The translations under genes and the position numbers were made by a program. The notes beneath the pieces were generated by a model. That model was not told the DNA's origin, did no database searches, and saw only the letters and a program-made list of their open reading frames with translations. 45,489 bases of DNA, from positions 1 to 45,489 of IMG/VR virus record IMGVR_UViG_3300011429_000012. One strand, 5' to 3'. Source of the stretch: a virus (taxonomy: Duplodnaviria; Caudoviricetes). Shown in pieces: positions 1 to 45,489 of the stretch; position 1 is the stretch's first letter, and the number at the start of each line of letters is the position of its first letter.

Positions 1-276
1 CATCTTACTAATCTTATTCATATCCTGTTCATCTAATTCAATGTAAGATGGGTCACATGATGGACATAAAGGTCTATCCATCTTCATAGTTCGTGGGTCC
101 ATGATTGTAGTATTCTCACAATCAATTCCCCAGCATTGAGTGAGTTTACCCGGAATTAATCCAGCCATATGAACAGGCATATAATGATTACATTCAGGCC
201 GCGCACAGGCCCATACCTTAGTATAACCATTAAGGACAATTCTATGATACTTATGAGTATGCTTAGGATTCGCCAT
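1..276 (-). CDS. Cys/His-rich hypothetical protein, 3'-truncated by the window edge
   Basis: Manual translation from ATG 276: MANPKHTHKYHRIVLNGYTKVWACARPECNHY...CWGIDC...CPSC; frame stays open to position 1; start overlaps the stop of 276..503. Confidence 0.7.
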   Translation of the reverse strand, partial: MANPKHTHKYHRIVLNGYTKVWACARPECNHYMPVHMAGLIPGKLTQCWGIDCENTTIMDPRTMKMDRPLCPSCDPSYIELDEQDMNKISKM

Positions 277-503
277 TAAAGTAATTCTTTCGTGATACTA
301 GTCGATACAGAACCTATCTGATTATTCGTCATGTCCAATAATCGATAATCAGACTCACAAACAATCAGACCGAGAAAGCGCGTCCGATATACACAATTAT
401 CTTTCCACTGTGTTATCTTACTTACCGAACGTAAATTCCATTTAATTTTAAATGATTGACTTTTCAGCCAATTTAATTTAATAGTCATACAAATTAGTGT
501 CAC
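276..503 (-). CDS. hypothetical protein
   Basis: ORF lies downstream of the promoter at 550-579 and its stop is coupled to the next ATG (TAATG); true start uncertain. Confidence 0.5.
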   Translation of the reverse strand: MTLICMTIKLNWLKSQSFKIKWNLRSVSKITQWKDNCVYRTRFLGLIVCESDYRLLDMTNNQIGSVSTSITKELL

Positions 504-549
504 CGGAAGTGGACAGGAGTGTAAATCCTACCTACCCTCTGTCCCTACC

Positions 550-579
550 AGTATATCACAAGTCCCCCCGCCTTGTCAA
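550..579 (-). promoter_or_regulatory. sigma70-type promoter
   Basis: Minus strand reads TTGACA (579-574), 18 nt, TATACT (555-550). Confidence 0.7.
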
Positions 580-640
580 GTCAAGGTCCATCGGGGAGTG
601 TAAATTATTCATACATGTAGGATTAATTAATTATTATTAT

Positions 641-656
641 AAAAAAAAAAAAAAAA
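641..656. repeat. A16 homopolymer in an AT-rich intergenic tract
   Basis: attaattaattattattat followed by 16 A. Confidence 0.9.
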
Positions 657-815
657 TAATAAGAAAAACCCCATGTTTTGGACGGGAAGGTCGCCTAACA
701 TGCCCTATTCGACCGAAGGCATGAGGGTATATACAGAGACACCCTCTCCCTACCTATACCTTCAGGTCGATAAATTGTATGGATTATTTACTTTAGGAGA
801 GAAGTATGTGACTAA

Positions 816-857
816 GGGATGAAGGATGAAACATTATATATGAAATGCCTTCATCCC
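816..857. terminator. stem-loop, possible terminator or processing site downstream of 988..1356
   Basis: GGGATGAAGG (816-825) pairs with CCTTCATCCC (848-857); AT-rich loop; no strong U-tract. Confidence 0.45.
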
Positions 858-987
858 CTGTCACCGCACTAAGCCTAAACTCTATTTATACTCGCTTAGT
901 CGAGTCCTATGTTAAGTAGAGGATTAAGTGTCTTACGTGGTTCTTGACCACATTATAACCGTTTGCTTAATCCTTGTATTGCTTGTA

Positions 988-1356
988 TTACAGCGAATCA
1001 ACCGTAACACCGAACAAAGCAGCCGCCATCTGCTTAGCTTCATCTTCACTCTTACCCGTAGCAATAAGAGTCTTAACAGTATTCTTAGCTGCGAACAGAA
1101 TACCATCAGGCGTAGCATCAACCTTAGGAGCCTTAATACCGGCTGCCTCGAATGCAATAAGCATAGCCTTTTGACGTGCATTAGCCTTACGCTTATTATT
1201 TACGAGTGTAACGATATCCTTAGCTGAAGGCTGTTCCTCTGCTGGAATCTCTGCCTGTGCCTCAAGCAAATTGACAGTAAAATTATACTTTACTGCTTCC
1301 GGCAGTTCAGAACCGTACGCCGACTCTGCAACCGCTTCAAAGGTTTCCGTTTTCAT
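988..1356 (-). CDS. hypothetical early protein, 122 aa (MKTETFEAV...)
   Basis: Start moved from the ORF-track position 1431 to ATG 1356, which has an AGGAG Shine-Dalgarno; the longer ORF's TTG is the promoter -35. Confidence 0.85.
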   Translation of the reverse strand: MKTETFEAVAESAYGSELPEAVKYNFTVNLLEAQAEIPAEEQPSAKDIVTLVNNKRKANARQKAMLIAFEAAGIKAPKVDATPDGILFAAKNTVKTLIATGKSEDEAKQMAAALFGVTVDSL

Positions 1357-1402
1357 TCTGTCACTCCTGATAGGTTTGGGTCGGTATTGACCCGATGAGA
1401 GA

Positions 1403-1431
1403 AGTATAACACGAACGCCGCCGATTGTCAA
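1403..1431 (-). promoter_or_regulatory. near-consensus sigma70-type promoter
   Basis: Minus strand reads TTGACA (1431-1426), 17 nt, TATACT (1408-1403). Confidence 0.8.
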
Positions 1432-1434
1432 GAC

Positions 1435-1620
1435 CTAATCGATAGGTCTAAGTCGAATTTCTTTCGACGAAGGGTTCAGGACCGAGTTTAACATACGGTC
1501 TTGATAAATTACTACAGCATACTTAAGAGGATATGCAGTAGTAGTGATTCGATGCCATCGTCTACCGTTTAGACGGTCGCGCTCGAATAATGCGTAATGA
1601 CGTGGATGTTTATTACGCAT
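1435..1620 (-). CDS. hypothetical protein
   Basis: 61 aa ORF whose start overlaps the stop of 1613..1735. Confidence 0.6.
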   Translation of the reverse strand: MRNKHPRHYALFERDRLNGRRWHRITTTAYPLKYAVVIYQDRMLNSVLNPSSKEIRLRPID

Positions 1621-1735
1621 GTCTTACCATCCTAACTAATTTGATTGTGTAGATACGCGCTAATTCTTCCCGACCTGATACTATCAAATCAATTAAAATT
1701 AACCACGTATCTAACTGTGTTATTGGTAGTTTCAT
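1613..1735 (-). CDS. small hypothetical protein, 40 aa (MKLPITQLDTWLILIDL...)
   Basis: Manual translation; GAGG Shine-Dalgarno before the ATG. Confidence 0.55.
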   Translation of the reverse strand: MKLPITQLDTWLILIDLIVSGREELARIYTIKLVRMVRHA

Positions 1736-2201
1736 TGTATCCTCACTAACTAATAATGAAACTATCAGTATGTGACAGGGGTTTTATGTGCTTTCATTAG
1801 GTATGATTAGTGCTCTCTTATTGGGTAACGCTATCGCGCGTTTATCCATGCATAGCATTTTAATCAATCTAAATGCACATTATGTGTTGACGATTTTGTT
1901 ATCAATCATCAATCATCATATAGACTCACGACACGATAAGCATATGTTTCCTGCCTGCTAACGCGGTCTATGCGCGCCACTCCTGACAAGGGAATGTAAG
2001 GGGCAGATTGCCACCGTAACTATATTGTAGTAATACTACTCAGATGGGCACGCAAGAGTCTGTTAAACTCGTCCCACTGCCGCGAACGAATCACGGTTAT
2101 AGTATAGGCATGTCACGATAAGACACATGTATAGATTACGCGATATGGTCCTTTCTCGTATGCCTTCTCGCTTGCGTGCGAGCCAGACAACTATATGTAT
2201 A

Positions 2202-2216
2202 GCACGCATGATGCCA
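2202..2216 (-). promoter_or_regulatory. sigma54-type -24/-12 promoter (leftward)
   Basis: Minus strand TGGCAT-CATGC-GTGC, GG-N10-GC spacing. Confidence 0.5.
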
Positions 2217-2230
2217 ACCCATATTATCCC

Positions 2231-2335
2231 CTAACTCCTTTAGAATCAACAACATAACATACATGTATATGTATTAATTCCATACACTAGCGTATGATTT
2301 GACTACAGTCTAAGTCCTTTGTTTACAATAACTTA
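2231..2335. repeat. imperfect 26-bp direct repeat with IHF-like core (2231-2256 and 2310-2335)
   Basis: CTAACTCCTTTAGAATCAACAACATA vs CTAAGTCCTTTGTTTACAATAACTTA (18/26 identical); resembles WATCAANNNNTTR. Confidence 0.55.
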
Positions 2336-2368
2336 TGGGGGGTATATAATAATTACCGGGTCCCATCT

Positions 2369-2383
2369 TGGCATGAAAATTGC
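2369..2383 (+). promoter_or_regulatory. sigma54-type -24/-12 promoter (rightward)
   Basis: TGGCAT-GAAAA-TTGC matches TGGCAY-N5-TTGC. Confidence 0.65.
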
Positions 2384-2541
2384 GGCTATTGAGCACCCAC
2401 AACTGATTCATATTTATAAATTAAGGGAAAAGAAATAGGGTCCCATATTATGATAGTATTTAATAAATAATATGTAATAAAGTGTCCTCTCTGGATGACA
2501 CCCTACAGGTGGGGTCAGGAGGGTCTAGGACGAGACTTCTG

Positions 2542-2557
2542 ACACTAGATGTAGTGT
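2542..2557. promoter_or_regulatory. NrdR-box-like 16-bp palindromic operator
   Basis: ACACTAGATGTAGTGT vs consensus acaCwAtATaTwGtgt (14/16). Confidence 0.55.
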
Positions 2558-2614
2558 CTTGACTGACTGGCAGAGTTCGTGCTTCCTGGGGCATCCTGAC
2601 TCGAAATAGACCTA

Positions 2615-2644
2615 TTGACATTGATAAGTTTATTAGTCTATGCT
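2615..2644 (+). promoter_or_regulatory. sigma70-type promoter for the structural arm
   Basis: TTGACA (2615-2620), 18 nt, TATGCT (2639-2644); AGGA Shine-Dalgarno and ATG 2679 follow. Confidence 0.65.
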
Positions 2645-2678
2645 GAACCCGACCGGCGGACTATGTATGTAGGAACAT

Positions 2679-2885
2679 ATGCCACAATTAATTTGTTCTA
2701 AATGCAAACGTATTCATTTAGCCCAATTTACTACATTGATTAATACGTCGTTATGTTGTGATGCAAAAGTAATTACTAAGCCGCATAGGTTTGAAGATAG
2801 AAGGATTGAAAAGGCGCGCAAAGATTTGGAATTATTTAATAAAGGATTAAATATTAAGAGTTCTGAATTTCCTAGAGTGGAGTAA
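2679..2885 (+). CDS. small Zn-finger-like protein
   Basis: CSKC...CC motif; Shine-Dalgarno present; first gene of the + arm. Confidence 0.65.
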   Translation: MPQLICSKCKRIHLAQFTTLINTSLCCDAKVITKPHRFEDRRIEKARKDLELFNKGLNIKSSEFPRVE

Positions 2886-2887
2886 TT

Positions 2888-3418
2888 ATGCCTGTTGGAT
2901 TAGTTGATGATATCGATTTTGAAAAAGAATACGCTTCAATAGTTGATATTCAGCGTCCAGGTAGGAGGAATGGAGATAATAATATTCCGCCTGCCTTACG
3001 TCAAGTGATTGCTGAAGAAGCTATTGTTAATGGAAATGGTTCGGGTAAGGAACTGGCTGAATTATTTGGGGTGTCTAAGTCATCAGTATCCGCGTATAAG
3101 AATGGCGCGACCTCTACTGATAGTTATAATTTACCTGACTCGAAATTAAAGAATCACGTAAATAAAGTTAAGGATAAGATTCGAGGCAAGGCACATAGTA
3201 AATTAATTATGGCCTTGAATGAAGTTACTAAAGATAAATTACAAACTGCTAAATTAAGAGATATCGCCGCAACTGCTCAGGCAATGAGTTCGATTGTTAG
3301 AAATATGGATGATGTTGAAGGTGAAGGTAAGATTAATCCAAATAACTTCATTATTTTCGCACCATATGTGAAGAACGAGAATGAGTTTAAGACTGTAGTT
3401 ATTAATGAGGTTGGTTAA
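2888..3418 (+). CDS. HTH DNA-binding protein, candidate terminase small subunit
   Basis: HTH-like KELAELFGVSKSSVSAYKN, helical middle, beta-like C-terminal tail; position upstream of the large terminase. Confidence 0.55.
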   Translation: MPVGLVDDIDFEKEYASIVDIQRPGRRNGDNNIPPALRQVIAEEAIVNGNGSGKELAELFGVSKSSVSAYKNGATSTDSYNLPDSKLKNHVNKVKDKIRGKAHSKLIMALNEVTKDKLQTAKLRDIAATAQAMSSIVRNMDDVEGEGKINPNNFIIFAPYVKNENEFKTVVINEVG

Positions 3419-5700: not shown

Positions 5701-5711
5701 GAGTAAATACT

Positions 5712-5942
5712 ATGGTTGGACAGGTTACACTCACTGCTAAGACTGGTGCAGGTGTTCAGGTAACTGCACAGGTTATTACGAATGTTTCGGCGCTAACATT
5801 TAATTTAGTTAATGGAACTTTAGCTATTGCTAGGTTTGAAACTGATCCAGGGAATTTAAACGAACAAACTTATGACTTAACAGGCGTGGGGACTGTTACA
5901 TGTTCAATCAGCGGACAAACATTTACTTGGGTTGTATCCTAA
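5712..5942 (+). CDS. small beta-rich hypothetical protein
   Basis: AGGAG Shine-Dalgarno; 76 aa. Confidence 0.75.
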   Translation: MVGQVTLTAKTGAGVQVTAQVITNVSALTFNLVNGTLAIARFETDPGNLNEQTYDLTGVGTVTCSISGQTFTWVVS

Positions 5943-6112
5943 TTAGTATAATTTCATCCAGTTGTGCATCATCGAGGTATAAATTAGTAAGAGTAGAGCG
6001 CGTAGGACCAGTTGAAACTGAAGTATGGAAGAACAATAATACTAAAAAATGTGAAAGACGGGTATACTTGGATTCCTTATACTACAGAACTGATATCTCT
6101 TGCGAGAAGTAA
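5900..6112 (+). CDS. putative lipoprotein or membrane-anchored protein
   Basis: Hydrophobic stretch followed by SSSC (lipobox-like); fills the gap between neighbours; start uncertain. Confidence 0.45.
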   Translation: MFNQRTNIYLGCILISIISSSCASSRYKLVRVERVGPVETEVWKNNNTKKCERRVYLDSLYYRTDISCEK

Positions 6113-14170: not shown

Positions 14171-14253
14171 CTAAATGTGCAAGGGGGCGCGCATCTTACA
14201 CGCGCAATAACTCTGGTCTAATTAGACTGTCCTTTTATGGATGGAGTAAATCA

Positions 14254-29746: not shown

Positions 29747-30343
29747 TTACTTAGCGATAGGGAAGGAATCGTCATGAAAAAAGGCGGTTCCTTCCTGATA
29801 TATTAATACAGCTAGACCCCACATAGCAGCGGCTAAATCATCATCTATAATTGATTCCGTAACCATACGTGATCGAACATATTCCATATTAGTATTAGGG
29901 TCTGATAAGGCAACTCGAAATTTATTCATGTAATTAGTCAAATGATTCATTGTATGATTAATTACATCACTAGTTGGTAATCCCTTCTCCCAATTTCCTT
30001 CCCCGTATTTTAGCGCGCCCCCATCGGGCTTATTATTTTCATCTAACTTACCTGTAAATCTTTGTGCTAGTCTATCTAAAGCTACTTTAGGAATAAGATC
30101 ATAACGAGGCATCTTACTTGATCTTTTCGCGCCCGTCTCGAAATGAATCATTGACTCTACATTGTATCCTTTTGGTTCTATAGGCTGCGTCATATCCGCT
30201 TCTTTTACCTGCTTTCCATATTGCATAAACAGCTCTATCAATTCCTTCTCGAATTTTAATTCGTCTGAACGATTCCATAAGAAATTGTCTGAATGTCGCT
30301 GAAGAAGCGTATCCACCTTCTTTGCCAAGTCTTTTTCGTTCAT
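29747..30343 (-). CDS. dATP/dGTP diphosphohydrolase-domain protein (DUF5664-like)
   Basis: GAKR..PRYDLIP, GALKYGEGNWEKG, NH..NHL and DLAAAMWG motifs; real start may be ATG 30193. Confidence 0.85.
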   Translation of the reverse strand: MNEKDLAKKVDTLLQRHSDNFLWNRSDELKFEKELIELFMQYGKQVKEADMTQPIEPKGYNVESMIHFETGAKRSSKMPRYDLIPKVALDRLAQRFTGKLDENNKPDGGALKYGEGNWEKGLPTSDVINHTMNHLTNYMNKFRVALSDPNTNMEYVRSRMVTESIIDDDLAAAMWGLAVLIYQEGTAFFHDDSFPIAK

Positions 30344-31030: not shown

Positions 31031-31464
31031 AGCTTCAACAACCTTTCAATTACATCTTTACTAGTATGACCATCATAGGGTGGGGCAGTAAGTAATTCAA
31101 TTAAATTAAACTTATCCCAGTGTTCCATTTGATAATGAAAACTTATTAATTGTGGAGGTTTAGTTACATCTAATTGAGGAATAGTCATTCCTACTATAAA
31201 GTAACCATCAAACATAGTTCCATCTGAATGTAATTTACTTTTCCAACATCTAATTCTGGTGCCTAGAGGGGTAATATAAGTATCGTATATACGAAATAGC
31301 GCGACTGTTAGTGCGAGACGCATTTCATATAGTTCAGATAGGGTATGATAGCCATCTGATACTTCTATATCATCTCCTTGAAAAGTATGTGCTATAATTT
31401 TATTTCCATCTCTTACTTCTGTTATTTGTGATTCATTAGGTGTAAGAACAGTTAGTATGTTCAT
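31027..31464 (-). CDS. WDGH-domain protein
   Basis: SDGYHT..ELY..R, WKSKLHSDG, ISFH and YDGHT motifs. Confidence 0.8.
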   Translation of the reverse strand: MNILTVLTPNESQITEVRDGNKIIAHTFQGDDIEVSDGYHTLSELYEMRLALTVALFRIYDTYITPLGTRIRCWKSKLHSDGTMFDGYFIVGMTIPQLDVTKPPQLISFHYQMEHWDKFNLIELLTAPPYDGHTSKDVIERLLKL

Positions 31465-32684
31465 TTATTCTTCCCCGCAAGATATTCTCTCATTAATCTC
31501 ACTTGTTCATCAGGCATCGTAAATACCATCTTATGACCTTCTGCTACAGTATCTATCATACCTGTTGAACAAAGCCCATTCATTAATTCATCAAATTCAT
31601 CCGGCCCACCATAATGCATCCAAAATTTCTTCATTAGAACATCGCGCGCTATTCGATGACTAGTAGATGAAAGAAGTTCATTAATAATTAATCCTTTCAA
31701 GGGCGCGCTCTGAGATTGTCCCTTCTTACCCATCGTAGCGTGTCTTACATTACCTACTAATTTCTCACATATTTTAATCGCCAGGTCCATATCATCTATT
31801 GATATTGTTAATGATGTATCTCGGGATAGGCTCAATAACATCGCCACTTTCAATACGGAATCTCCGAATCGATTTAATGTTCCTGTGTCATCTTTAATCT
31901 CCATCTGATGAACTTCACTACGAAATTGTTGATACCAATCATCATAGAACTTACCTACAGGCGTAAGGTTGTTGTTCTCGTCGAATGTATCTGTAAAGGG
32001 TCCAGAAATTTTTGATATGTCCTTAAGATATTCAGCCAAAAGTTTAAGATCAGGTGGATTAGATAACTTTCGCATGAGAGAATTAATAGTCTGACTTTGA
32101 CTCTCATGTATAATGAACGTGCGCGCCAGGAATCCGCCTTGAATATCTTTCTTTCCAAAGAAATATTCCGCATGAGCTTCATTAATCCCTCCGAACATTG
32201 TAACTGTTGGATCTTTTAAATTGAAATTTTCCATCTTCAGGAGGGATTCCCATTCACCTACGTTATAATTACGGTCGTATAAATCTGTTAATATTGTTAA
32301 TGCCGCGTTATCTTCGACTAGTGAGGATGATAGTTCACTCGCACATATATAACCAGTCGATTTCATACTATGCGGATTACCTGACTGACCTGTTCCTAAT
32401 TTTTTTAATATCCCCTGAATCGAGCTGCGACCGCTAATAATTTTAGTATTATTGACAATTCGAACCAAATTCTTAGAGAGCGCGATTGGGGGGCCTTTCT
32501 TAAGCCCGGAGTCAGCATGAAGTATACAGAAAATATTAGGATATAAATTATAAGCTCCACCACGATTAAGCCAGACATTATCTTTCACCACTGCGCTTAT
32601 AGAACATAAACCACTCCACATCCAAAATGATGTAGGGGATTCCATTTCTTTGTGCTGGTCAACTAATTCCGTGAGCCAGGTCAT
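31461..32684 (-). CDS. DUF3987-like P-loop helicase
   Basis: ESP..F..WS, YPN...LHADSG.KKG, SELSS, LTDLYD and GGFLAR motifs; winged-helix-like C-terminus. Confidence 0.75.
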   Translation of the reverse strand: MTWLTELVDQHKEMESPTSFWMWSGLCSISAVVKDNVWLNRGGAYNLYPNIFCILHADSGLKKGPPIALSKNLVRIVNNTKIISGRSSIQGILKKLGTGQSGNPHSMKSTGYICASELSSSLVEDNAALTILTDLYDRNYNVGEWESLLKMENFNLKDPTVTMFGGINEAHAEYFFGKKDIQGGFLARTFIIHESQSQTINSLMRKLSNPPDLKLLAEYLKDISKISGPFTDTFDENNNLTPVGKFYDDWYQQFRSEVHQMEIKDDTGTLNRFGDSVLKVAMLLSLSRDTSLTISIDDMDLAIKICEKLVGNVRHATMGKKGQSQSAPLKGLIINELLSSTSHRIARDVLMKKFWMHYGGPDEFDELMNGLCSTGMIDTVAEGHKMVFTMPDEQVRLMREYLAGKNK

Positions 32685-33279: not shown

Positions 33280-33485
33280 ATTTTCAAACTCTCCAATTTA
33301 TATCGAAGTGTTCCTCGATAATAAAATTCAAGGGTATAGGGATCAATTAAATCCTCTAATACAGATTTAGTTAACATTTTAAATGTAGCTGTCGCGGATT
33401 CATAATTATTAATATCTAAACAACGGTCAAATCTTTCAGCATCTTTCTCATTTTGACATTTAAGGATGATTGTATAGTTCATCAT
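33276..33485 (-). CDS. hypothetical protein
   Basis: ATGA coupling to the polymerase. Confidence 0.6.
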   Translation of the reverse strand: MMNYTIILKCQNEKDAERFDRCLDINNYESATATFKMLTKSVLEDLIDPYTLEFYYRGTLRYKLESLKI

Positions 33486-35953
33486 ACCACCTTTTTATAT
33501 TTATATAGATTCATAAAATTATCACCTATCTCTACGTCCGATGGTATGGATAAGTTTGGGCGAGGTAAAGAACATACGGCAAAGTTGATTGGTCTTTCCA
33601 TTTCGAGCCTTGCAATGGGAATAAAGGCATCCACATCCTTTTCTGGAACCATGTATAATAACGCATCGTGACTTTCCATAATGAGACGGACTGGTAACTT
33701 ATACATCTTAATCCTAACGGCTGCATTCTTTGTGTTGTCAGATACAGCACGCTGAGGTAAGTAGGATAAAGCCTGACGTATAAGTTCGTCTCCATGTCTT
33801 TCAAAAAAGGATCTTCTTCCGCCAAAATCCGATTCGACACCGTATGGAAGTGGTGCAATAAGAGTTCTAGTCCTATTAATGATTTCTGTGACTTCTTTAA
33901 AATAGACATTTTGTATATTTGGACACATTCTATGAAATGTTTTCAATGCGGCATCAGCCATTGCTTCATCGATACGTATATCTATTTTATATTTTCTAGC
34001 TGAAGTATTTACTTCCGCCATAGCTCTACGTCCACGTGCTCCACGCTCTCCAGCATGTCGTAGAGTTTTTCCAAGGAATCTTTCAGAACATTCATATCCG
34101 AGTAACTTTTTACTATATTGTTCCTCAGTTCCTCCGAGGAACCATGAAGCTGTGAGAGCATGTATATCGTTGGTGTCGTAGAGTGCAAGCATTCTATCAT
34201 CGTTACTAAATCTTGACGTAACGCGAGCTTCAGCCTGGGATGAATCAATATTAACAAGGATATATCCCTTGTCAGGTCTATACGATCCTCTGACATCTTG
34301 CCCAATGTCTCCATGTTTCGTAATGGTTTGATAGGCAATGCCCATTGACTTCTTAACCTTTTTATTTTGAGCATTACGCATTTCAATTGCTGGCCTAATT
34401 GGTGGATCTTGTTGACCATTAGATGTTCTTCCTGTTTCTAAACATGGAAAACAAGTTGTTTTCATTCTTCCGTCATAATCTGGGAGGGCAAAGAGATAGG
34501 TGGAGATAGTTTTACTAACTCTTCTTCCTTCAAGAATAAGTTCAACGCCTCTACGATGTTCTTGATTTGTAAACGATTTGAGATTAAGAAGACTCGTAAG
34601 TTCTTCTTCTCCAGTTCCATTTCTTGCTGGTAATTTCCAGACATTATACAATAAGATGCTAACTTGTTTAGGCGAACGAAGATTAATTGGCACTTCAGCC
34701 AATCGATAGAGTTCATACGCAATACGCTCCTGCCAGGCTATATATTTTTTAAGAAGTAAGTCACGCATCTCATAATCAATAACGAATCCTGTAGTCTCAA
34801 TCTCTGCATATACTTCAGGGAGAGTCATCAGGAAATTACGATAGAATTTCTGTAAATTTAATTCGTTGAGGTCCTTATCCATCTCCTCATTAACTTCAAA
34901 TTGAACACATGAATCGCGCGCACAGCCAAGAAGTAAATCCTTTGGTTCCCCTTCATACATACCCTCATCTTTATAGAATGGTTCTTCTGTATATATGGAT
35001 GTATTAAAAGCCAATCCCTTAGGAAATTCAGGATTAATTGCAAATGCTTTAAGCATTAAATCATCGTAATGATTCTTTACTGAGAAACCTAATCTCTTAA
35101 GTTTATCACGGTCGTAATTAAAATTTTGACCAATAATACCAAAATTATTAAGAATCCACTGAATAAGTATCCAAATGTTAACCATATCCGAGTCTGGGGT
35201 GTTAATAATGGTGCTATCATTATTCCAGAAAGGGATAGAAATACCATGAGACCTAGAGAAAGCAAAACCAATGCAAAAAGGGATGCACTGTCCATGAGCT
35301 TCAATATCAGCTGAAACATTTAATTTTTCCTTATAACGATCTAAAAAGGCTCGAAGTTGCGCGCTATTTTTACAAATCTCTAATGTTCGTAATGGTGGTA
35401 GATATTCCTTGAAGGTACTCTGTTTAAGAGCGCGCTTCATATCCATTATCATTACATACTTATTCCAATATCCTTTAATTTCTGATGCTTCAGATGAACC
35501 AGTTAAATCGCGCGGATGATATGTTCCGACTACCTTAGTTCCATAGCCAGGTAGGATGGAACCTCTAAAGGATTGAATCTTAGTTTTTCCACTTATATAA
35601 GCTAATGATGTTCCGCCGAGAGTAAGAATACAATTGGGTGATACTGCCTTAATTTCATCTCTAAGATTAGATATTTGTTGTTCTAAATTTACACCTGATG
35701 ATTCAGCGCGCGTTTTGAATGGAATCTTTTTCTTTCCTATGTTTGGGGTTACATGGAATTTAGATAAACTGGTAACCCAACACGAATCTCTACTAATACC
35801 TGACTCTTTAAGAAGCTGGTCAAGCATCCTACCTGCTGAACCGGATAGAATTTTACCTGAATTAAGGTCATCATAGGATGGGCAATCAGTGATAATCATT
35901 AAATTAGCACCAAGCGCGCCCCCGCCGTATATTTCTCTCTTAATATCAGCCAT
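33482..35953 (-). CDS. polA: family A DNA polymerase with N-terminal uracil-DNA-glycosylase-like domain and 3'-5' exonuclease
   Basis: UDG-like SGSAGRML and TYHP; Exo I ADIE, Exo II GQNFNYD; TGRTS; motif A DSSQAEAR; motif C SHDAL. Confidence 0.92.
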   Translation of the reverse strand: MADIKREIYGGGALGANLMIITDCPSYDDLNSGKILSGSAGRMLDQLLKESGISRDSCWVTSLSKFHVTPNIGKKKIPFKTRAESSGVNLEQQISNLRDEIKAVSPNCILTLGGTSLAYISGKTKIQSFRGSILPGYGTKVVGTYHPRDLTGSSEASEIKGYWNKYVMIMDMKRALKQSTFKEYLPPLRTLEICKNSAQLRAFLDRYKEKLNVSADIEAHGQCIPFCIGFAFSRSHGISIPFWNNDSTIINTPDSDMVNIWILIQWILNNFGIIGQNFNYDRDKLKRLGFSVKNHYDDLMLKAFAINPEFPKGLAFNTSIYTEEPFYKDEGMYEGEPKDLLLGCARDSCVQFEVNEEMDKDLNELNLQKFYRNFLMTLPEVYAEIETTGFVIDYEMRDLLLKKYIAWQERIAYELYRLAEVPINLRSPKQVSILLYNVWKLPARNGTGEEELTSLLNLKSFTNQEHRRGVELILEGRRVSKTISTYLFALPDYDGRMKTTCFPCLETGRTSNGQQDPPIRPAIEMRNAQNKKVKKSMGIAYQTITKHGDIGQDVRGSYRPDKGYILVNIDSSQAEARVTSRFSNDDRMLALYDTNDIHALTASWFLGGTEEQYSKKLLGYECSERFLGKTLRHAGERGARGRRAMAEVNTSARKYKIDIRIDEAMADAALKTFHRMCPNIQNVYFKEVTEIINRTRTLIAPLPYGVESDFGGRRSFFERHGDELIRQALSYLPQRAVSDNTKNAAVRIKMYKLPVRLIMESHDALLYMVPEKDVDAFIPIARLEMERPINFAVCSLPRPNLSIPSDVEIGDNFMNLYKYKKVV

Positions 35954-36741: not shown

Positions 36742-36743
36742 AA

Positions 36744-37331: not shown

Positions 37332-37342
37332 TTATTTATCCT

Positions 37343-37600: not shown

Positions 37601-37609
37601 TCTATACTC

Positions 37610-37951
37610 CTAACGATTTAGAGCGTGGACAATTGCCTTGAATAAATAATCTTTTCGCTGCTGTTCAATTGGCAACTGTTCATATCGAACGAAACAAGGA
37701 TGTTCTTTTTTATCGGCATCCTTAATAGGTCCGTATTTCCATCCCATTAATTCTTTTTCTTTTAGCCATGATTGATGACTAAAATCCGGACCTGCATCTG
37801 GATTAGCTAAATGAAATTGAACCCCTTTAATAGCTGATTCTTGTTGCCATAATGGAGCGTTATTCCATTCTAATTGTGAATAATCACCAATGGATTCACA
37901 ATATGCTCTATTAGATTCATGACAAACGCGCGCTATTTGTTCAACTGTCAT
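37610..37951 (-). CDS. RyR (ryanodine receptor repeat)-domain protein
   Basis: HQSW...GWKYG..KD..KKEHPCFV.YEQLP..QQRKD. Confidence 0.88.
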   Translation of the reverse strand: MTVEQIARVCHESNRAYCESIGDYSQLEWNNAPLWQQESAIKGVQFHLANPDAGPDFSHQSWLKEKELMGWKYGPIKDADKKEHPCFVRYEQLPIEQQRKDYLFKAIVHALNR

Positions 37952-38371
37952 TCATTCATTCCTTGCAATAGCTGCGTTAGCCCAGAATACATATTCTTCT
38001 AATGATGTTAGAGCTAATGACTGTTCTCTACTTTCAGGTGTTTCCTGAATTGTAGTTAGAGCTAATGCTTTAGCTAGGTCACGAATATATACATATCTTT
38101 CAGGCTGGTCATCCTTTGGAGAATGATAAGTGAAATCATTTTCGATTCTCTTACTCATCTTCTCACTAATCTTATACTTCACTCTTGTTACCTCCCTAAT
38201 ATCGATGGTGATGAAATCGCGCGCTAATTCATTGAAACGGGGATATTGTTCCATGAATAGGTTTCGTATCCAAGTATATGTTCTAGAGGGAGACGCGCCA
38301 ACAAAATAAATTTTATCTTCCTTTCGAGTGAAGAATTCAATCTGTTTTGGATGTGGTTTATATTTATTCAT
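37952..38371 (-). CDS. Acb2/Tad1-like helical-hairpin nucleotide sponge with an N-terminal terminase-like extension
   Basis: FTYH.P...Y..IR and SREQSLALTSLEE..FWANAAIAR; internal GTG 38182 with a GGAGG Shine-Dalgarno. Confidence 0.7.
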   Translation of the reverse strand: MNKYKPHPKQIEFFTRKEDKIYFVGASPSRTYTWIRNLFMEQYPRFNELARDFITIDIREVTRVKYKISEKMSKRIENDFTYHSPKDDQPERYVYIRDLAKALALTTIQETPESREQSLALTSLEEYVFWANAAIARNE

Positions 38372-38377
38372 AAAAAG

Positions 38378-38459
38378 TGCCCCTGACTGGAATCGAACCA
38401 GTATGCCTTACGGCGAGAGATTTTAAGTCTCTTGTGTCTGCCAATTTCACCACAGGGGC
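38378..38459 (-). tRNA. tRNA-Leu(UAA)
   Basis: Acceptor GCCCCTG/CAGGGGC, D-loop TTGG, anticodon arm AGAGA-CTTAAAA-TCTCT, long variable arm, GGTTCGATTCC; CCA not encoded. Confidence 0.95.
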
Positions 38460-38577: not shown

Positions 38578-38970
38578 CTAGTCCCTACACTTACGATACG
38601 TATGCTGAACCTTATTCTGCATCTTGTTGTTATACATATCATTCAGGACCATGACTTCAACATCATGTCCAGAGAGCGCGTTAGTATCGAACCTGCTAGA
38701 CTCAGTAACCGTTTCACCTAATGCTTCAAATAGACCCTTCATAAAACCAATGGCCTTACTATTGAAATTCCATGTAAGCGGAACTCCTGCATATTCTTCA
38801 GAACCATTATCAGCATTCTTAATAATGGTGGCTTCTACGACGTAGTTAATCGACTTTCCATCCTTACTCGCCTCGCCATTAGAGCAATCATCGATATGAA
38901 CCTTATACATCGCAGGTTCAACAATCTTATCACGAAGGAGATCCTTAGCTGTGAATTGAATTACGGCCAT
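38578..38970 (-). CDS. putative single-stranded DNA-binding protein (DUF669-like OB fold)
   Basis: VEPAMYKVHI...SKDGKS pattern; downstream of the Sak4-like ATPase. Confidence 0.65.
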   Translation of the reverse strand: MAVIQFTAKDLLRDKIVEPAMYKVHIDDCSNGEASKDGKSINYVVEATIIKNADNGSEEYAGVPLTWNFNSKAIGFMKGLFEALGETVTESSRFDTNALSGHDVEVMVLNDMYNNKMQNKVQHTYRKCRD

Positions 38971-38990
38971 GATTTTAATGATCCTTTTGA

Positions 38991-39821
38991 TTATGGAGTT
39001 ACTGATAATGGTTTCGGAGTAGGAACTGATGGTGCTAGACGATTTTTTTCAATTGCGGGTAAGATGTATTTATCATAGGCTTTGTCACTATTAAATACAA
39101 TCTTTCGAGGGAGCGGTAAAGACGTGCGTGCGTAATCGTCACCAGTATGGGATGTTAGACATGTATAATCTCCTTCCTTTGAGGTATCCATAGCGCGGTC
39201 TACATTGAAATGATATACTTCGCTGCAATATGTAGGAATCTTTGCAGAAATTATTTTTCCGCCTGTAACGATAATTCTGCTATGGTGAGTCGATGCGACT
39301 TCACTATCTAATTTCCTCTCACCAATTACATGAGCGATAAGGACAATATTAATTTTGAAATACTCTTTAATATCCTGAAATAGCGCGATTTCATCTGAGA
39401 AACCAGCAGCTTCAGCCTTATAATCACCCATTGTATTAACAGCAATGCCGCCGATGGTCATTCCTTTATCATCACCTTCGGTATTTTTTTTACCTTCTTT
39501 TGATTTAAGAGATTGTCTATTTATTACGTCGCCATTAGCGGTTATATTATCGAGAATGAGTGTCTTATACTTACAGTTCGTCCTCATTCGTTCTAATTTC
39601 TGTTTAATATTATTAAAATCAGTATAGTAATCAAAATCAATATCGGCTGGATTAATCCCCCAGTTACGACATGGTATGATAAGAGAATCCATCTTCTTAT
39701 CAATAGAAAACCAATATTGAGGAATAGGGAAGGATAGCGCGAACGTGCTCTTTCGAGTTCCCCATTCTCCTTTAAGGAGATACATCATGGAGTCTTGATT
39801 TAATTGGGATAGATTACCCAT
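38991..39821 (-). CDS. AAA_24 / Sak4-like recombination ATPase
   Basis: Walker A GEWGTRKST, Walker B TLILD, LIAH motif. Confidence 0.8.
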   Translation of the reverse strand: MGNLSQLNQDSMMYLLKGEWGTRKSTFALSFPIPQYWFSIDKKMDSLIIPCRNWGINPADIDFDYYTDFNNIKQKLERMRTNCKYKTLILDNITANGDVINRQSLKSKEGKKNTEGDDKGMTIGGIAVNTMGDYKAEAAGFSDEIALFQDIKEYFKINIVLIAHVIGERKLDSEVASTHHSRIIVTGGKIISAKIPTYCSEVYHFNVDRAMDTSKEGDYTCLTSHTGDDYARTSLPLPRKIVFNSDKAYDKYILPAIEKNRLAPSVPTPKPLSVTP

Positions 39822-40334: not shown

Positions 40335-40504
40335 TCTTCATTTAACCATTCTGATTTAGTCCAGGAATCAATTATAGCCCTTCCACTTGTAGCCATATGT
40401 TCATCACAAAGCCAAATAACTTCTGATTTCATTGGATTTTCATCATTTTCTACAAGGGCAATAAATGTTGGTTCTGAATCACAATATTCACATTTATCAC
40501 TCAT
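40331..40504 (-). CDS. small Zn-finger-like protein (MSDKCEYC...LCDEH)
   Basis: Manual translation, 57 aa; overlaps the nuclease stop. Confidence 0.65.
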   Translation of the reverse strand: MSDKCEYCDSEPTFIALVENDENPMKSEVIWLCDEHMATSGRAIIDSWTKSEWLNEE

Positions 40505-41585
40505 TCGAAGGGTCCCACTTAGGTCCGACCATAAATAATTCCTTTAACTTTCCTTCTCTCAATCCTCTATCAAGCCTACATACTTCATAGAAATCACAGA
40601 AACCATATTGATTCTGACATGAAGTAAAGCGCGGATCCCATTTATCTAAATCAATCGAGGAAAGAAATTCATATACTTTACCGGGTAGAATTTCATTTCT
40701 CCATTCATTAAGCCGGTCAGAAGTATAGGACATTGTTTCTCTGACAAACTTTTCAGCAGGTTTCAATGATGATTGAAAACCAATTTTATTAATTATCATA
40801 TTATTGGTTCCCATAATTAGACACTGACCCATAAATTGATTATCAATATCTCCCATCTTACGGTCTATCTTACGCGACTTATGGTCCATACTTACAGTTT
40901 TGGGTTGACCTACATTAACTACTACGTCAATCTTTGCCTTCCATAAGATGCGAATTTCATCATCTTCATATAATACTTTACCTTTAACTGTTTCTGATTC
41001 TGATGGTATGAAAGGGTCAGACATGTAATGTTGGAAATACATTTCCATTGTCTTGACAATCCAATTATAACCTACTATATACTTATCAGATTCAAGTGGA
41101 ACATTCTTACAACCGAGATAAGGGTCTGATTTCTTGTGTTTAATACATTTATTCTGTTTACAATCGAGACAACCGAAATAGTATTCTTCACCTGCTATCA
41201 TGCCGGCGGTAATGGATAGAGAGCGCGAAAATCCATTAATGAGATTGGTGTAATAAATTTCTAAAATCGCATGAACAATACTACCTGCCTCAAGAGAGTT
41301 ACCCTTACCATCGATATCAATTAACTGCATGTTATACACGAAGTTGAAATAGCGCGCGCACTTCATGTATGCAGTAAACATCGATGCGTCTAGAATGATA
41401 TTCTTCTTCTTTATAACTACTTCCGCAAGTCCAGAATCAAAGGCTTGCTCCAAACTAATCGTTTCTGGTGGCGTAATAGTTTGGATTTGCTGAATCGTTT
41501 CTTTAATGGCTTCAATTGATGGCAAAGTTTTCCCATGTGAATCCTTTTTTAATTGTTGTAATGCAAGTAGTTCTTCTAAGCCCAT
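40497..41585 (-). CDS. PD-(D/E)XK (Cas4/RecB-like) exonuclease
   Basis: AS...YMKC, GSIVH, KID...DHKS, Q, and C-terminal C.....C.F..VC. Confidence 0.85.
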   Translation of the reverse strand: MGLEELLALQQLKKDSHGKTLPSIEAIKETIQQIQTITPPETISLEQAFDSGLAEVVIKKKNIILDASMFTAYMKCARYFNFVYNMQLIDIDGKGNSLEAGSIVHAILEIYYTNLINGFSRSLSITAGMIAGEEYYFGCLDCKQNKCIKHKKSDPYLGCKNVPLESDKYIVGYNWIVKTMEMYFQHYMSDPFIPSESETVKGKVLYEDDEIRILWKAKIDVVVNVGQPKTVSMDHKSRKIDRKMGDIDNQFMGQCLIMGTNNMIINKIGFQSSLKPAEKFVRETMSYTSDRLNEWRNEILPGKVYEFLSSIDLDKWDPRFTSCQNQYGFCDFYEVCRLDRGLREGKLKELFMVGPKWDPSNE

Positions 41586-41621
41586 ATTACTTCACCATTA
41601 CTTCTACATTCTCAATGCCCA

Positions 41622-41837: not shown

Positions 41838-42022
41838 GATTTACAGTTCTCCTCCATGAACTTAACGATTTCTTTCAATGATTCTATCGAATGATATATA
41901 CTATCCTCAACTTCAGTATATTCCCATATGCCGGAAATTATATTCTTACTTATGATAGCGAATGAACCATCTTCGTCATAAACGGCGTAGTCATTGCCAT
42001 CTTTAGTGAATGTATATAACAT
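41834..42022 (-). CDS. hypothetical protein
   Basis: TAATG coupling to the helicase. Confidence 0.6.
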   Translation of the reverse strand: MLYTFTKDGNDYAVYDEDGSFAIISKNIISGIWEYTEVEDSIYHSIESLKEIVKFMEENCKS

Positions 42023-44139
42023 TAAGATGCCTTCTTTCTTTTATTATGGCCTTTAACAATTGATTCAATCAATTCTTTAATAATATCAGCTTGATTAAAC
42101 TGAACTGCCTCGCCTTTATTCATGGAATTATGAAACTCTGACCGTTTCTTTTCAATAATTCCAGCAAGTAAATCATCTATGGAACCTGCTGCTGTCATGA
42201 ATATTACATTAATTATTGCCGCTATCTGTCCAATTCTTCTAAATCGTCCCGGTGCAGCTTGGTCCTCATTAGCAGGATTCCATTGTCTTTCATGGACGAT
42301 AGCATCACTACATGTCTGTAAGTTTAATCCCTCACCTGCAGCAAGTGTAGATGCAACAAGGAAAGCGCGTTCAGACTTATTAAATTTTTCCTGAACTTCA
42401 AATCTATCCATACTTGACTGTTCACCTGTTAGTCTCAATACAGGTATGGATGGAAATTCTGCCTTTAACTTATCATATAGTATACTCGCTACATCTTTAT
42501 GATGGACGAATATAACTAACTTTCTATCTGTTTCTTCGTAGAATGTTCTAGCCCATTCAACCGTTACAGGTATCTTAGCAAGACCTGTAATGTGTCTCAT
42601 TCGAGATAGTTTCGCTATTACTGGACCATCTTCATTGTCATATTCATCTTCAGTTCCGCCTATAACCTTTTCATTATACCACTTAACGAAATTACTGACT
42701 TCCTCATCATATGTCTGTTGCTGAACATTATCCATGTCACAGTAGAATAATGTTCTATTAACATCAGGCATTTCTCTCATTACTTCTGATATCTCTCTTC
42801 TGATAACTAAATCCTTTGTATATTCCTTGAACCGTTCAATATCTCGTATTCCGCCTTCTTTATACTTATCTGTTCCAGTCTGTTGATAGTAATTAACCCA
42901 TCTCTGACTGAACTGTGCGAATGAAGGAAATTTCTGCGGCGCCATCATGTTTAAGATGGAGAAATATTCAGACCCTCGATTTTTCCAAGGTGTCCCCGAG
43001 AGCGCGATAACATTCTTATCTTTAACTAATCGTCTTACCTGTTGAGTTCGTGTCGAATCTACGTTCTTAACTTGTTGGCATTCATCTAAGACTATTGTTT
43101 TAATATCAGCTAACTTACTTATATCAAAACCTTGACTAACTATCTTACCTTTCATCTTCCTATTCTTAGGGACCATTATATCATAAGAAATAATGTATGA
43201 CTTAAACATTGGAAGAATATGGTCCTCAGACGATGTAATTACTTGTGGAATAATATTCAGCCACTTCAATGCTTCCTTGAATAGCTGAAATTTAAGAGAT
43301 GATTTAACTACGAATAATACAGGAAATGCAACTGGATTAAAGAATAGATAACCCAACATCTGAATAGTTTTGCCTAATCCCATTTCATCGCAGATTAGGA
43401 CTCCCTTATTAACTGCTAAACTTGTTTCAATAAACCGCATTCCTTCTATCTGAAAAGGAAATGGTTTAAACTCGAAACATTTGTTACATTTATTCTTTTC
43501 CCATACATGCTTACATGCTTTAACACGCGGTTCATGATTATTAGATATGAACGTTTCGTATGGCGTGCCCTTACGAATCTCTTTAATTAAAAGGTGCCCA
43601 CATTTAAGAAATATCATCTTCCTATCTGGGCGGTCGGAAGATGTAGTTATTAGTGAACTTCTAACTTCAATTGCATCTTTACTACATGTCGGACATTTAT
43701 CACGAAGCTGAGTAATTTCATATTTAGGACGTGTAATAGTTTCTTCTACTTTTACATTCTTAGTTACTATTTCTTCCACATAATCAATCTTTACGTTAGC
43801 ACCTGACCTAATTGCATTAATAATATCAGGTGAAAGAGCTAAATGACTACATGGTGCAGTAGATGTGCATCCTATTAAACGCGCCTTTAACGCCCATGCA
43901 GCATTATGATGTTGCCCGGGGCAAAGCGCGTGTGCTATTTCATGTAATATTGTATTTCTAATTTCAGGTTCAGGATGGATATCTACATGATGAGCGTTTA
44001 GGATTATAGCCTTATCAGCATAAGAACATAATCCTAAATACCAATTATTATTGGTAGTCGAGAGTCTGACATGCCAATCTAATAGATTATGTTCTATTAG
44101 TTTTTCATGACAGAATCTTGTTGCGGCTTCTCTATTCAT
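42022..44139 (-). CDS. SprT-like metalloprotease fused to a SNF2-family (HARP-like) helicase
   Basis: LGLC..., TILHEIAHAL, HHNAAW; Cys-rich linker; PFQ, DEMGLGKT, DECQ, LSGTP, GEGLNL, WNP..EDQA..RFRRIGQ. Confidence 0.92.
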   Translation of the reverse strand: MNREAATRFCHEKLIEHNLLDWHVRLSTTNNNWYLGLCSYADKAIILNAHHVDIHPEPEIRNTILHEIAHALCPGQHHNAAWALKARLIGCTSTAPCSHLALSPDIINAIRSGANVKIDYVEEIVTKNVKVEETITRPKYEITQLRDKCPTCSKDAIEVRSSLITTSSDRPDRKMIFLKCGHLLIKEIRKGTPYETFISNNHEPRVKACKHVWEKNKCNKCFEFKPFPFQIEGMRFIETSLAVNKGVLICDEMGLGKTIQMLGYLFFNPVAFPVLFVVKSSLKFQLFKEALKWLNIIPQVITSSEDHILPMFKSYIISYDIMVPKNRKMKGKIVSQGFDISKLADIKTIVLDECQQVKNVDSTRTQQVRRLVKDKNVIALSGTPWKNRGSEYFSILNMMAPQKFPSFAQFSQRWVNYYQQTGTDKYKEGGIRDIERFKEYTKDLVIRREISEVMREMPDVNRTLFYCDMDNVQQQTYDEEVSNFVKWYNEKVIGGTEDEYDNEDGPVIAKLSRMRHITGLAKIPVTVEWARTFYEETDRKLVIFVHHKDVASILYDKLKAEFPSIPVLRLTGEQSSMDRFEVQEKFNKSERAFLVASTLAAGEGLNLQTCSDAIVHERQWNPANEDQAAPGRFRRIGQIAAIINVIFMTAAGSIDDLLAGIIEKKRSEFHNSMNKGEAVQFNQADIIKELIESIVKGHNKRKKAS

Positions 44140-44154
44140 ATGATTATTTATTAT

Positions 44155-44397
44155 TTAAAATACCAACTCTTCCCTACCGATAGTTCCATTATTATTAATA
44201 TAGTAACTAATTGTCAAAATCGCCGGTTGCTTACTTCCGTCAAAATTAAACCGACCTACATGCATTCTTACATTAGGACCTAATCCATTAATTCTAATCC
44301 ATCTACCTAACTTAATGAAATCGCGCGCCTCTGAAAGAGCTTCTCTAACCATCAAAACTGTGTAATCAATCTTCTGTTCTGATTTCATAGAATACAT
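44155..44397 (-). CDS. hypothetical protein
   Basis: GAGGAG Shine-Dalgarno. Confidence 0.6.
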   Translation of the reverse strand: MYSMKSEQKIDYTVLMVREALSEARDFIKLGRWIRINGLGPNVRMHVGRFNFDGSKQPAILTISYYINNNGTIGREELVF

Positions 44398-44524
44398 CTT
44401 CTATCTCCTCAGGGGAGCCATCATAAATATCATCTTTAATTGCCTCTGCTAATTCATTCAATTCCGCTTCAGTAAAATTAGCAATAGGGCTCACTGTAAC
44501 TTTAATTATGATTGTCTTAGGCAT
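44366..44524 (-). CDS. small acidic hypothetical protein (MPKTIIIKVTV...)
   Basis: Manual translation, 52 aa; TAATG coupling. Confidence 0.6.
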   Translation of the reverse strand: MPKTIIIKVTVSPIANFTEAELNELAEAIKDDIYDGSPEEIEDVFYEIRTED

Positions 44525-44727
44525 TATATTTTTTCTTGATAATTATGATTTCTAGTAAGAATTGATTTGCTTAATCCAACATCTTCAGGTCCACTTACTT
44601 GTAAACATTTTAGTGCTAAATTTAGGTTAGCTCTGGCTGGATTACTAGGATTAAGAAAAGTCATTGCATAATATATTTCTCTGGCTGCTTGTTCTAAATT
44701 ATTATGTAATTCATTTATGACTTTCAT
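44524..44727 (-). CDS. hypothetical protein
   Basis: AGGA Shine-Dalgarno. Confidence 0.6.
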   Translation of the reverse strand: MKVINELHNNLEQAAREIYYAMTFLNPSNPARANLNLALKCLQVSGPEDVGLSKSILTRNHNYQEKI

Positions 44728-44730
44728 GAA

Positions 44731-45489
44731 TTATCCTTGCTTAACCGGAACAGTTGACATCATTTCTTTATATCGAATTACCGCCTTAACCGGAGTTAAT
44801 TTAAATACAGTGCAAAGATTAGCTAATATTTCAGGCGCGATGCCATGTTCTTTAGCTACTTCCTTAATCTCGGCTAAATTGACTTTACCTGAATTATCTT
44901 TAGGTTTGGCTACTTTGACTTCATTAGGTTTGTAATTAATATCCCTAACTTTATACTTATCCTGTTCTTCCTTTGTAAGACTCGCAACTAGATTATTCAA
45001 ATAAGTTTGGTCTGCCTTGATGTTATTTGTAATTTCTAATCGCTTTTCTTCCACTTCAATTAATATATTCTTGAAATGTAAGTATCTCTCATGAACTGCT
45101 TTATATAGTTCATAATCCTTACGTTCAATCATCACATCTGCATCAATGACTGACTTTAACTCACTAATCGATTTAGTTTCAGCATTAAAGTAATCAGCGC
45201 GCGTAATGATTGATGCGTCAATATCTTTACTTATTTCCAATGTCTTACGAGTAATCTCATTCGCCCTATCTACTCGCTTCTGCTGATTCTCAGGCGATTG
45301 ATAATCTTTAGTTAGATTATTTATTACATCTTCCTTTTCAAAACATGATGGACATAGAAGAAATGTTCCTTTATATAAGTCACAATGACCTACATATGGA
45401 CATGCCTCACATGTCGCTAATGATGTATGGTCTAATTCAGGTCGTCTACACCTGACACATACATCAGGGACGCCACCTTGAATGAATGG
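44731..45489 (-). CDS. Zn-finger plus coiled-coil protein, 5'-truncated by the window edge
   Basis: Frame of 44731..45240 stays open to 45489: PFIQGGVPDVCVRC...CEAC...CPSC... Confidence 0.75.
   Translation of the reverse strand, partial: PFIQGGVPDVCVRCRRPELDHTSLATCEACPYVGHCDLYKGTFLLCPSCFEKEDVINNLTKDYQSPENQQKRVDRANEITRKTLEISKDIDASIITRADYFNAETKSISELKSVIDADVMIERKDYELYKAVHERYLHFKNILIEVEEKRLEITNNIKADQTYLNNLVASLTKEEQDKYKVRDINYKPNEVKVAKPKDNSGKVNLAEIKEVAKEHGIAPEILANLCTVFKLTPVKAVIRYKEMMSTVPVKQG

Follow-up and report, generated by a model that had tools for sequence, protein, structure and literature searches.

Short words that a genome carries far more often than chance predicts are known from a few systems. 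HIP1 is a palindrome of host chromosomes, quasi-periodic and accompanied by cognate methyltransferases, and HIP1 and the alternative HIPs are iterated, independent of reading frame and conserved, with the core CGCG enriched only next to a flanking G (PMC4390886, PMC5861425). Chi is a host-read word of 8 bases that reaches a median observed/expected ratio (O/E) of about 2.5-3 in Chi-rich phages (the lambdoid LLS class, P1, MD8 and recombinase-positive, inhibitor-negative lambdoids) and is polar and end-clustered in LLS (PMC12315714, PMC3784561). Lambda exonuclease pauses strand-specifically at GGCGA (PMC7496540). Here we analyse the word GCGCG/CGCGC in the tailed-phage record IMGVR_UViG_3300011429_000012 (the window, meaning the whole stretch of 45,489 bp) and argue that the phage itself probably encodes the DNA-processing enzymes that would recognise it as a signal. 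Like HIP1, the window word is iterated, frame-independent and conserved; unlike HIP1, it is non-palindromic, randomly spaced and phage-borne, and no methyltransferase was found with it. The window phage shares with Chi-rich phages a short, non-palindromic, GC-rich word present in all frames and within genes, together with a recombinase and no recognised nuclease inhibitor. In contrast to Chi, its word has 5-6 bases, is 7-30x over-represented, near strand-symmetric and evenly spread, and changes with a module of phage genes. For HIP1 and other iterated words an explanation has been missing for decades, in part for want of a way to locate the reader; the window word varies together with a block of some six phage genes, which leaves few, purifiable reader candidates.

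The window is near-complete (CheckV 98%) and has a GC content of 0.369, with a virion arm on the + strand (about 2.7-29.7 kb) and an early/replication arm on the - strand. GCGCG and CGCGC together give 145 overlapping matches, against 19.5 expected from base composition, 12.9 from an order-1 and 41.9 from an order-2 Markov model; 30 order-2 simulations had a mean of 41.2 and a maximum of 56. The + strand carries 73 GCGCG and 72 CGCGC. The matches merge into 94 loci on both strands between 200 and 45203, at 2.0-2.3 loci/kb in all three regions of the window (mean gap 484 bp), and 83 loci contain (A/G)GCGCG (52 on +, 45 on -). A first-pass annotation had reported such a genome-wide excess, and we confirm that it is real and larger than estimated there: the count of about 20 loci in the first 10 kb agrees with the 21 found, whereas about 80 for the genome was too low, and 12 of the 13 positions quoted hold a site within 1 base, the remaining one (318) holding none, with a site at 378.

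The excess does not depend on reading frame. In a synonymous-codon shuffle of 73 genes (200 runs), GCGCG occurred 16, 23 and 25 times in the three frames against 3.7, 2.6 and 2.9 expected (O/E 6.9), and CGCGC 21, 25 and 26 times against 5.0, 1.6 and 1.8 (O/E 8.6), all six frame-by-orientation cells exceeding the maximum of the 200 shuffles. Since the word itself raises the use of GCG and CGC codons, a null was also built from the remaining codons; with motif codons masked in this way, 4.3 words were expected and 130 observed in automatically called open reading frames (ORFs), an excess of about 30x. The amino-acid contexts of the word include GA, TR, xAL and xAP besides AR and RA, and amino-acid pairs show no more than a mild increase, which some word-poor relatives show too. 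The frame-resolved shuffle rules out an artefact of codon choice or of Ala-Arg pairs and upholds the first-pass idea of a dispersed signal. Neither of the outcomes that the first-pass annotation had named as refuting, an O/E near 1 after codon and dinucleotide correction or confinement to Ala-Arg codon pairs in a single frame, was obtained. Non-coding DNA of 11 word-rich genomes likewise holds 72 words against 11.1 expected from base composition. Six loci of the window lie outside the gene list: one, at 200, is inside an initially uncalled ORF, and two form the stem of an intergenic hairpin (14187..14205, + strand), a structural explanation for these two non-coding loci; one relative has a different hairpin at that place.

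We next consider the exact form of the word. Outside GCGCG, neither CGCG (18/24, written as observed/expected here and below) nor GCGC (15/32) is enriched, which rules out either 4-mer as the true word, and GCGCGC stands at 29/1.9. Sites in a single orientation are frequent after A (30/4.3) or G (19/3.3) and infrequent after T (2/3.7), a 5' purine rule: single-orientation RGCGCG is enriched 6-7x, and TGCGCG is not. The still higher ratio of palindromic GCGCGC is as expected of a site that counts for both strands. The word is the non-palindromic (A/G)GCGCG, and no longer consensus or one-sided GC flank was found beyond the purine at -1. Nearest-neighbour gaps are random in the window (p 0.13-0.18) and in 11 genomes (combined p 0.23 for the coefficient of variation, 0.61 for the longest gap), with none of the quasi-periodicity of HIP1. 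Words one base removed from GCGCG are mostly not drained: pooled over 11 genomes their O/E is 0.62-1.79, with 11 of 15 above 1 and GCGCT lowest at 0.62. The C-to-T variants, which biased repair would consume, are not depleted either (pooled 1.14-1.26 in 11 genomes; in the window GTGCG 16/12, GCGTG 17/11, GCACG 17/13 and GCGCA 15/15).

These properties bear on a HIP1-like ratchet, in which a host CGCG cytosine methyltransferase and G-methyl-C-directed mismatch repair would together build up G+CGCG and GCGCGC. Unflanked CGCG at its null with GCGCG and GCGCGC high is the pattern that Elhai describes for CGATCG within HIP1, and the density of the word is of the order of Elhai's one per kb (PMC4390886). 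The word also shows the HIP1-type excess in all reading frames and a retention of sites and codons beyond codon preference. However, such a ratchet leaves the base 5' of the G free, and that base matters strongly and differs by lineage; the words RCGGCT and GCGAGG of relatives (see below) are without a palindromic core; and no cytosine methyltransferase was found among the window proteins, in keeping with the first-pass annotation, or among 130 further proteins (129 selected from accessory genes of relatives and one window ORF). One Dam-type adenine methylase gene occurs, in relative G012. Moreover, the word follows phage genes, and since a methylation ratchet should be indifferent to the phage polymerase, the data point to the phage module instead. 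We consider the ratchet highly improbable, and the earlier HIP1-like, methylation-based framing is weak, given the 5' purine, the random spacing and the intact C-to-T neighbours.

Restriction-site avoidance is also visible in the window, where GTAC (7/124) and GATC (79/154) are low, 14 of 64 palindromic hexamers are absent from coding DNA, GAAGAC and CTCTTC are low and runs of A are avoided; GATC is near zero in many relatives. Compensation for this avoidance was considered as a source of enriched words and can explain GGAAC, GATTA, GACCC and GGTCA (through GTAC/GATC loss), but not GCGCG.

A comparison with related phages was then made. A capsid scan yielded 72 loci, from which 27 longer records were taken, giving 28 genomes including the window. 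GCGCG has an O/E of at least 3 in 16 of the 28, and the favoured word is discrete and lineage-dependent, taking the forms xGCGCG, GCGAGG, GCGGCG and RCGGCT. RGCGCG is found in G000 and G001, T/Y-GCGCG in G005, G006, G012, G018, G020 and G028, GGCGCG in G017, (C)GCGAGG in G002-G004, G009 and G029, GCGGCG in G010 and G014, AGCGC in G019, and RCGGCT in G026 and G027. The flank rule of RCGGCT resembles that of the window word (A 3.2x, G 4.2x, C 2.1x and T 1.0x in the new contigs described below). In distant phages with the same polymerase type GCGCG stands at 327/284 and 1/6. No report of a GCGCG excess in phages was found in the open-access literature, subscription journals lying mostly outside its coverage, and no iterated word following a phage replication module was met there, no search having been phrased for it.

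The favoured word follows the replication genes. For distance correlations the near-duplicates G001 and G014 were removed, and for the test by module also G022. In a Mantel test the word profile correlated with the replication module (rho 0.53, p 0.0005, 24 genomes) and not with the virion module (rho -0.08, 25 genomes), and restriction-site avoidance, a trait imposed by the host, correlated with neither module (0.03 and 0.08, respectively). Among window genes the strongest correlation belongs to a Sak4-like annealing protein (38991..39821, PF13479, phrog_124; rho 0.55), followed by a SNF2-type helicase with an N-terminal SprT-like domain (42022..44139; 0.50), a DNA polymerase A with an N-terminal family-4 uracil-DNA glycosylase (UDG)-like domain (33482..35953; 0.45), a PD-(D/E)XK exonuclease with four conserved Cys (40497..41585, Pfam PF12705, E 1.6e-4; 0.44), a probable single-stranded DNA binding protein, so named from its position and with no clear family match (38578..38970; 0.43), and a DUF3987 helicase-like protein (31461..32684; 0.42), all on the - strand. 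The Sak4-like protein and the exonuclease are present in 20 of 20 genomes of the first set. Virion genes gave values near zero (capsid -0.13, portal -0.04, terminase 0.03, collagen fibre 0.04), and the values for terminase and portal disfavour the packaging signal that the first-pass annotation had offered as one possibility. Four genomes illustrate the dissociation: G026, G027, G010 and G019 each combine virion genes ordinary for the family (capsid 0.68-0.74 to the window, main-clade median 0.68) with module genes far from those of the window (Sak4 0.23-0.25, against 0.47) and with a different word. Conversely, G024 has a capsid 83% identical to that of G010, yet a main-type polymerase, and lacks G010's word.

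To probe this relation out of sample, the word was predicted from Sak4 type in 58 new contigs, with 8 loci already in the set excluded and five words tested. Among 38 contigs of the G026/27 type the top word was AGCCG in 28, GCGGC in 8, none in 2 and GCGCG in 0; 36 of the 38 thus carry the RCGGCT/GCGGC word, and the pooled counts were 90/100 for GCGCG and 883/345 for AGCCG. In three contigs of this type the only virion gene covered is distant (terminase at 31% in L355, capsid at 41-42% in both L333 and L348), and AGCCG still stands at about twofold or more. Seven window-type contigs had GCGCG on top in 5 (161/39), the single G010-type contig had GCGGC at 22/7, and one distant contig had GCGCG at 28/13. 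Because the word follows the phage replication module both in and out of sample, a phage-encoded agent is likelier than the host-encoded one that the first-pass annotation had raised, and we put the probability of a phage-module cause of any kind at about 0.68.

The sites are also retained between relatives. In 60 aligned gene pairs of the window and G001 (78% nucleotide identity), 66 of 125 words are retained, GC-rich 5-mers being retained at 0.26, and 77 of 136 motif codons persist against 54.8 expected. At sites encoding the same amino acids, 38 of 66 words are retained against 17.3 expected, and between G001 and a closer contig 34 of 35 against 27.1. About half of the sites turn over at steady density, which would fit selection on the word as a class, and we consider it likely that the GCGCG loci are kept by selection. 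A neutral by-product would likewise track the module, if the polymerase, or the UDG-like domain within it, were to spare this sequence context or bring it about amid general GC-to-AT erosion; random spacing and the modest excess of retention over control words (58% vs 38%) agree with it. It is nonetheless improbable, as no one-off source word is drained among the 15 neighbours or the C-to-T variants, an excess of 30x requires all five positions to be protected, and near-identical contigs differ by single transitions, at varying positions. Both multi-base differences sit in locally diverged patches, and templated multi-base insertion was accordingly rejected as a source of sites.

Strand polarity was examined in the same genomes. 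The word is enriched in both orientations throughout. Single RGCGCG sites of the window are distributed 13:3 in the early arm (p 0.04) and 16:17 in the late arm, and 47:21 in the early arm pooled over five discovery genomes; new window-type contigs gave 16:16. GCGAGG shows polarity, at 75:33 over the four discovery genomes and again in two new ones (20:11, p 0.01), CGCGCA has weak polarity, and RCGGCT in the early arm of new contigs stands at 4.3x vs 3.0x, with an over-dispersed control (standard deviation of z 1.93). This pattern hints at, without proving, a direction-sensing reader.

Several findings weigh against a signal read by the phage's own module. Without G010, G019, G026, G027 and G033 the module correlation falls to 0.03, so that a deep split carries the whole signal, and the correlation of the word with restriction avoidance becomes 0.18 (p 0.02). 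Within the main clade alone, 13 tests left nominally positive only Sak4 (0.32, uncorrected p 0.014), a zinc-finger gene (0.30) and one tail gene (0.28), and the correlation cannot rank the module genes, because they are linked. The 11 new contigs of the G019/33 type were mixed (GCGCG on top in 4, none in 7), and the 38 contigs of the G026/27 type are mutually related, some being near-duplicates, so that Fisher values for the new contigs overstate certainty. On the trees of the exonuclease, Sak4 and helicase, the variants R-, T- and G-GCGCG and GCGAGG are scattered in patches, with G004 (GCGAGG) nested in a GCGCG clade. Two or three words coexist in several genomes, which is what a variety of hosts would produce; in G009, G013, G015 and G018 the enriched words are unrelated to one another (e.g. 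GCGAGG plus CCCGGT in G009) and may date from module swaps or from infection of several hosts. Of 64 sites of four control GC-rich words, 24 were retained against 14.3 expected; since these too exceed expectation, part of the site-retention excess reflects an underestimate in the null, and the neutral retention expectation is probably too low. Polarity is weak and uneven. The window exonuclease is a nuclease only, whereas AddAB reads Chi outside its nuclease domain. Finally, module type could itself mark a host clade.

The last of these points is what would let host Chi mimicry survive, in which the word is the attenuation site of a host AddAB or RecBCD enzyme, selected in a recombinase-bearing phage without a nuclease inhibitor, and the module types correspond to different host clades. 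Known Chi words of the AddAB type share small size, the lack of a palindrome and a GCG core, as in AGCGG, GAAGCGG and GCGCGTG (10.1101/2021.07.08.451572) and GCGGTGGT (PMC5443536). Recombinase-positive, inhibitor-negative lambdoid phages over-represent Chi with a median O/E of 2.5 (PMC3784561), and no Gam or Abc2 match was found among the 73 window proteins. The polarity of GCGAGG and its repetition in new genomes would also fit, as would AGCGG at 1.7x on both strands of SPP1 (L256), a phage with its own exonuclease and recombinase. GCGGC/GGCGG is about twofold enriched in SPP1 as well, close to the G010 word. On the other hand, a word read by the host should follow host range, so its tracking of replication genes, and not of virion genes or restriction avoidance, points to the phage. 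The excess of 7-30x is far beyond the published Chi excess, the window has 73:72 and no end clustering where LLS has 20 of 23 sites one way (PMC12315714), sk1 and c2 hold just 2 and 1 GCGCGTG, and the GCGCG O/E is only about 0.75-1.4 in phages of higher GC content that are not family members but have a tail-region gene in common with it.

The capsid had no match among 50,697 phage records, and the best polymerase matches are at about 24% identity. Protein clusters supplied no host name, and matches in the Atlas were either viral or below the threshold. A lipoprotein-like ORF (5900-6112) next to a holin-like ORF, together with an M15 peptidase elsewhere, suggests a diderm host. A structural comparison with the protein of one relative pointed to Acidobacteriota clusters, below the match threshold, a weak host link. 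Candidate host flanks were collected with an Acidobacteria 16S primer (118 loci, 54 kept after filtering). GCGCG ranks first or second among enriched 5-mers in two of the six groups (277/181 in 42 kb and 537/377 in 33 kb, 1.4-1.5x), which would suit host Chi, but it has no strand skew there (286/195 vs 251/182); CGCGAGG stood at 14/9 vs 4/8 in one 33-kb group. Taken together, we consider host Chi unlikely, while still giving it appreciable weight. Recent exchange of gene 23172 was rejected as proof of a shared host, its fourfold sites looking saturated (15/48 to 25/45 outside the closest relative). Family members L073-L076 lie on short contigs of metagenome-assembled genomes (GTDB) from four unrelated phyla and are probably mis-binned.

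Returning to a signal read by the phage's own enzymes, we infer that the word has its reader in the module, namely in the resection/annealing pair rather than in the polymerase or a priming step. The phage exonuclease, likely with the helicase, would pause or stop at the word and hand the single-stranded end to Sak4, and an AT-rich genome would have to hoard a GC-rich site that a GC-richer genome has by default. Resection and annealing are favoured because Sak4 gives the strongest correlation among window genes and the sole module signal left in the main clade, because the neighbouring nuclease has a predicted AdnA/AddB/Cas4-type fold, and because lambda exonuclease pauses at a GC-rich word; this ranking over other module steps is weak, as the genes are linked. 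The exonuclease model (pLDDT 85, pTM 0.77) found as best Foldseek matches AdnA, the Cas4-family ACE1, SSO0001, AddB and lambda exonuclease (TM by query 0.2-0.43), and a PDB sequence search with it gave no match. Residue 277 was rejected as a specificity switch: among 5318 columns it alone was separating, but one or more columns of this kind arose in 7 of 13 permuted sets, and the residue recurs in other classes. The likeness to lambda exonuclease lies in a phage resection nuclease that would respond to a GC-rich word of few bases, in a strand-specific way, on the phage's own DNA; GGCGA, by contrast, is reported as a pause motif at cos and not as a genome-wide selected excess (PMC7496540), and pausing by the window enzyme is a proposal. 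A phage-private, Chi-like signal for this AddB/Cas4-fold exonuclease, the helicase and Sak4 is our tentative choice among specific mechanisms, at somewhat less than even odds.

Alternatively, the polymerase/helicase complex of the phage, perhaps together with a double zinc-finger protein, might use the word for priming or for restarting replication; short GC-rich primers would be favoured where the genome is AT-rich. RGCGCG and RCGGCT both prefer a 5' purine and reject T, just as primers begin with a purine; one RGCGCG occurs about every 0.9-1 kb per strand, and the distances of polymerase and DUF3987 protein track the word. T7 gp4 is a phage primase with a recognition site. Phage prim-pols can read sites of 3-8 bases, and the prim-pol of NrS-1, with GTG/TTTGGTTA, offers a short word with the phage's own replication protein as reader (PMC8718748). 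Yet the window phage differs from primase-site phages in that no primase was recognised and no clear lagging-strand polarity is seen: the DUF3987 protein has no Pfam primase domain, only weak PHROG 'primase' labels besides weak PDB sequence matches, and leading/lagging polarity is inconsistent. Spacing is random in the 11 genomes, and the TGCGCG class of relatives breaks the purine rule. Priming is, in our judgement, rather unlikely.

The double zinc-finger protein (1..276, - strand, running off the window start) is a second-tier candidate reader. It occurs in 24 of 28 genomes in two subtypes, has weak PDB sequence matches, and within the main clade the GCGCG O/E is associated with its subtype (p 0.007, without phylogenetic independence), which would favour priming. 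A second conserved early gene, for a zinc-finger protein with a helix-turn-helix (HTH)-like tail (44731-45489, - strand), runs off the window end and occurs in 19 genomes, each with a module of the main type; at the junction the record seems to lack a short stretch. A small HTH gene upstream of the polymerase (L081:18428-18715, - strand, and homologues; no family match), which resembles the ParB type, has the highest correlation of all (rho 0.58) and is present in 18 of 28 genomes, but was rejected as the window's reader since none of the six reading frames of the window encodes it. In two distant phages a comparable position is occupied by a gene annotated as ParB-like or as a methylase.

It is slightly more probable than its opposite that this large uncultured phage family has a private, swappable signal, each module reading its own 5-7-base word and the 45-kb genome being rewritten synonymously to match. 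If so, Chi would have a counterpart encoded by phages, one that comes in several natural specificities, phages would, like hosts, sculpt their genomes with their own Chi-like or priming signals, and predicting hosts from words would mislead in such phages. The two module types would provide a built-in specificity swap (RGCGCG vs RCGGCT), and the family would be a source of sequence-responsive resection or priming enzymes of varied specificities.

Other features of the early arm were noted on the - strand. An Acb2/Tad1-type hairpin domain (37952-38371, PF24729, E 8e-16), by annotation of a nucleotide-sponge anti-defence family, adjoins a RyR-domain gene (37610-37951). A tRNA-Leu(TAA) lies at 38377-38459, and TTA is the commonest leucine codon (640). 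A dATP/dGTP diphosphohydrolase domain (29747-30343, PF18909) is shared by 5 of 20 genomes, with no recognised base-modification cluster. A long poly-A tract after ATT repeats (630-660) lies in the non-coding stretch between two early genes.

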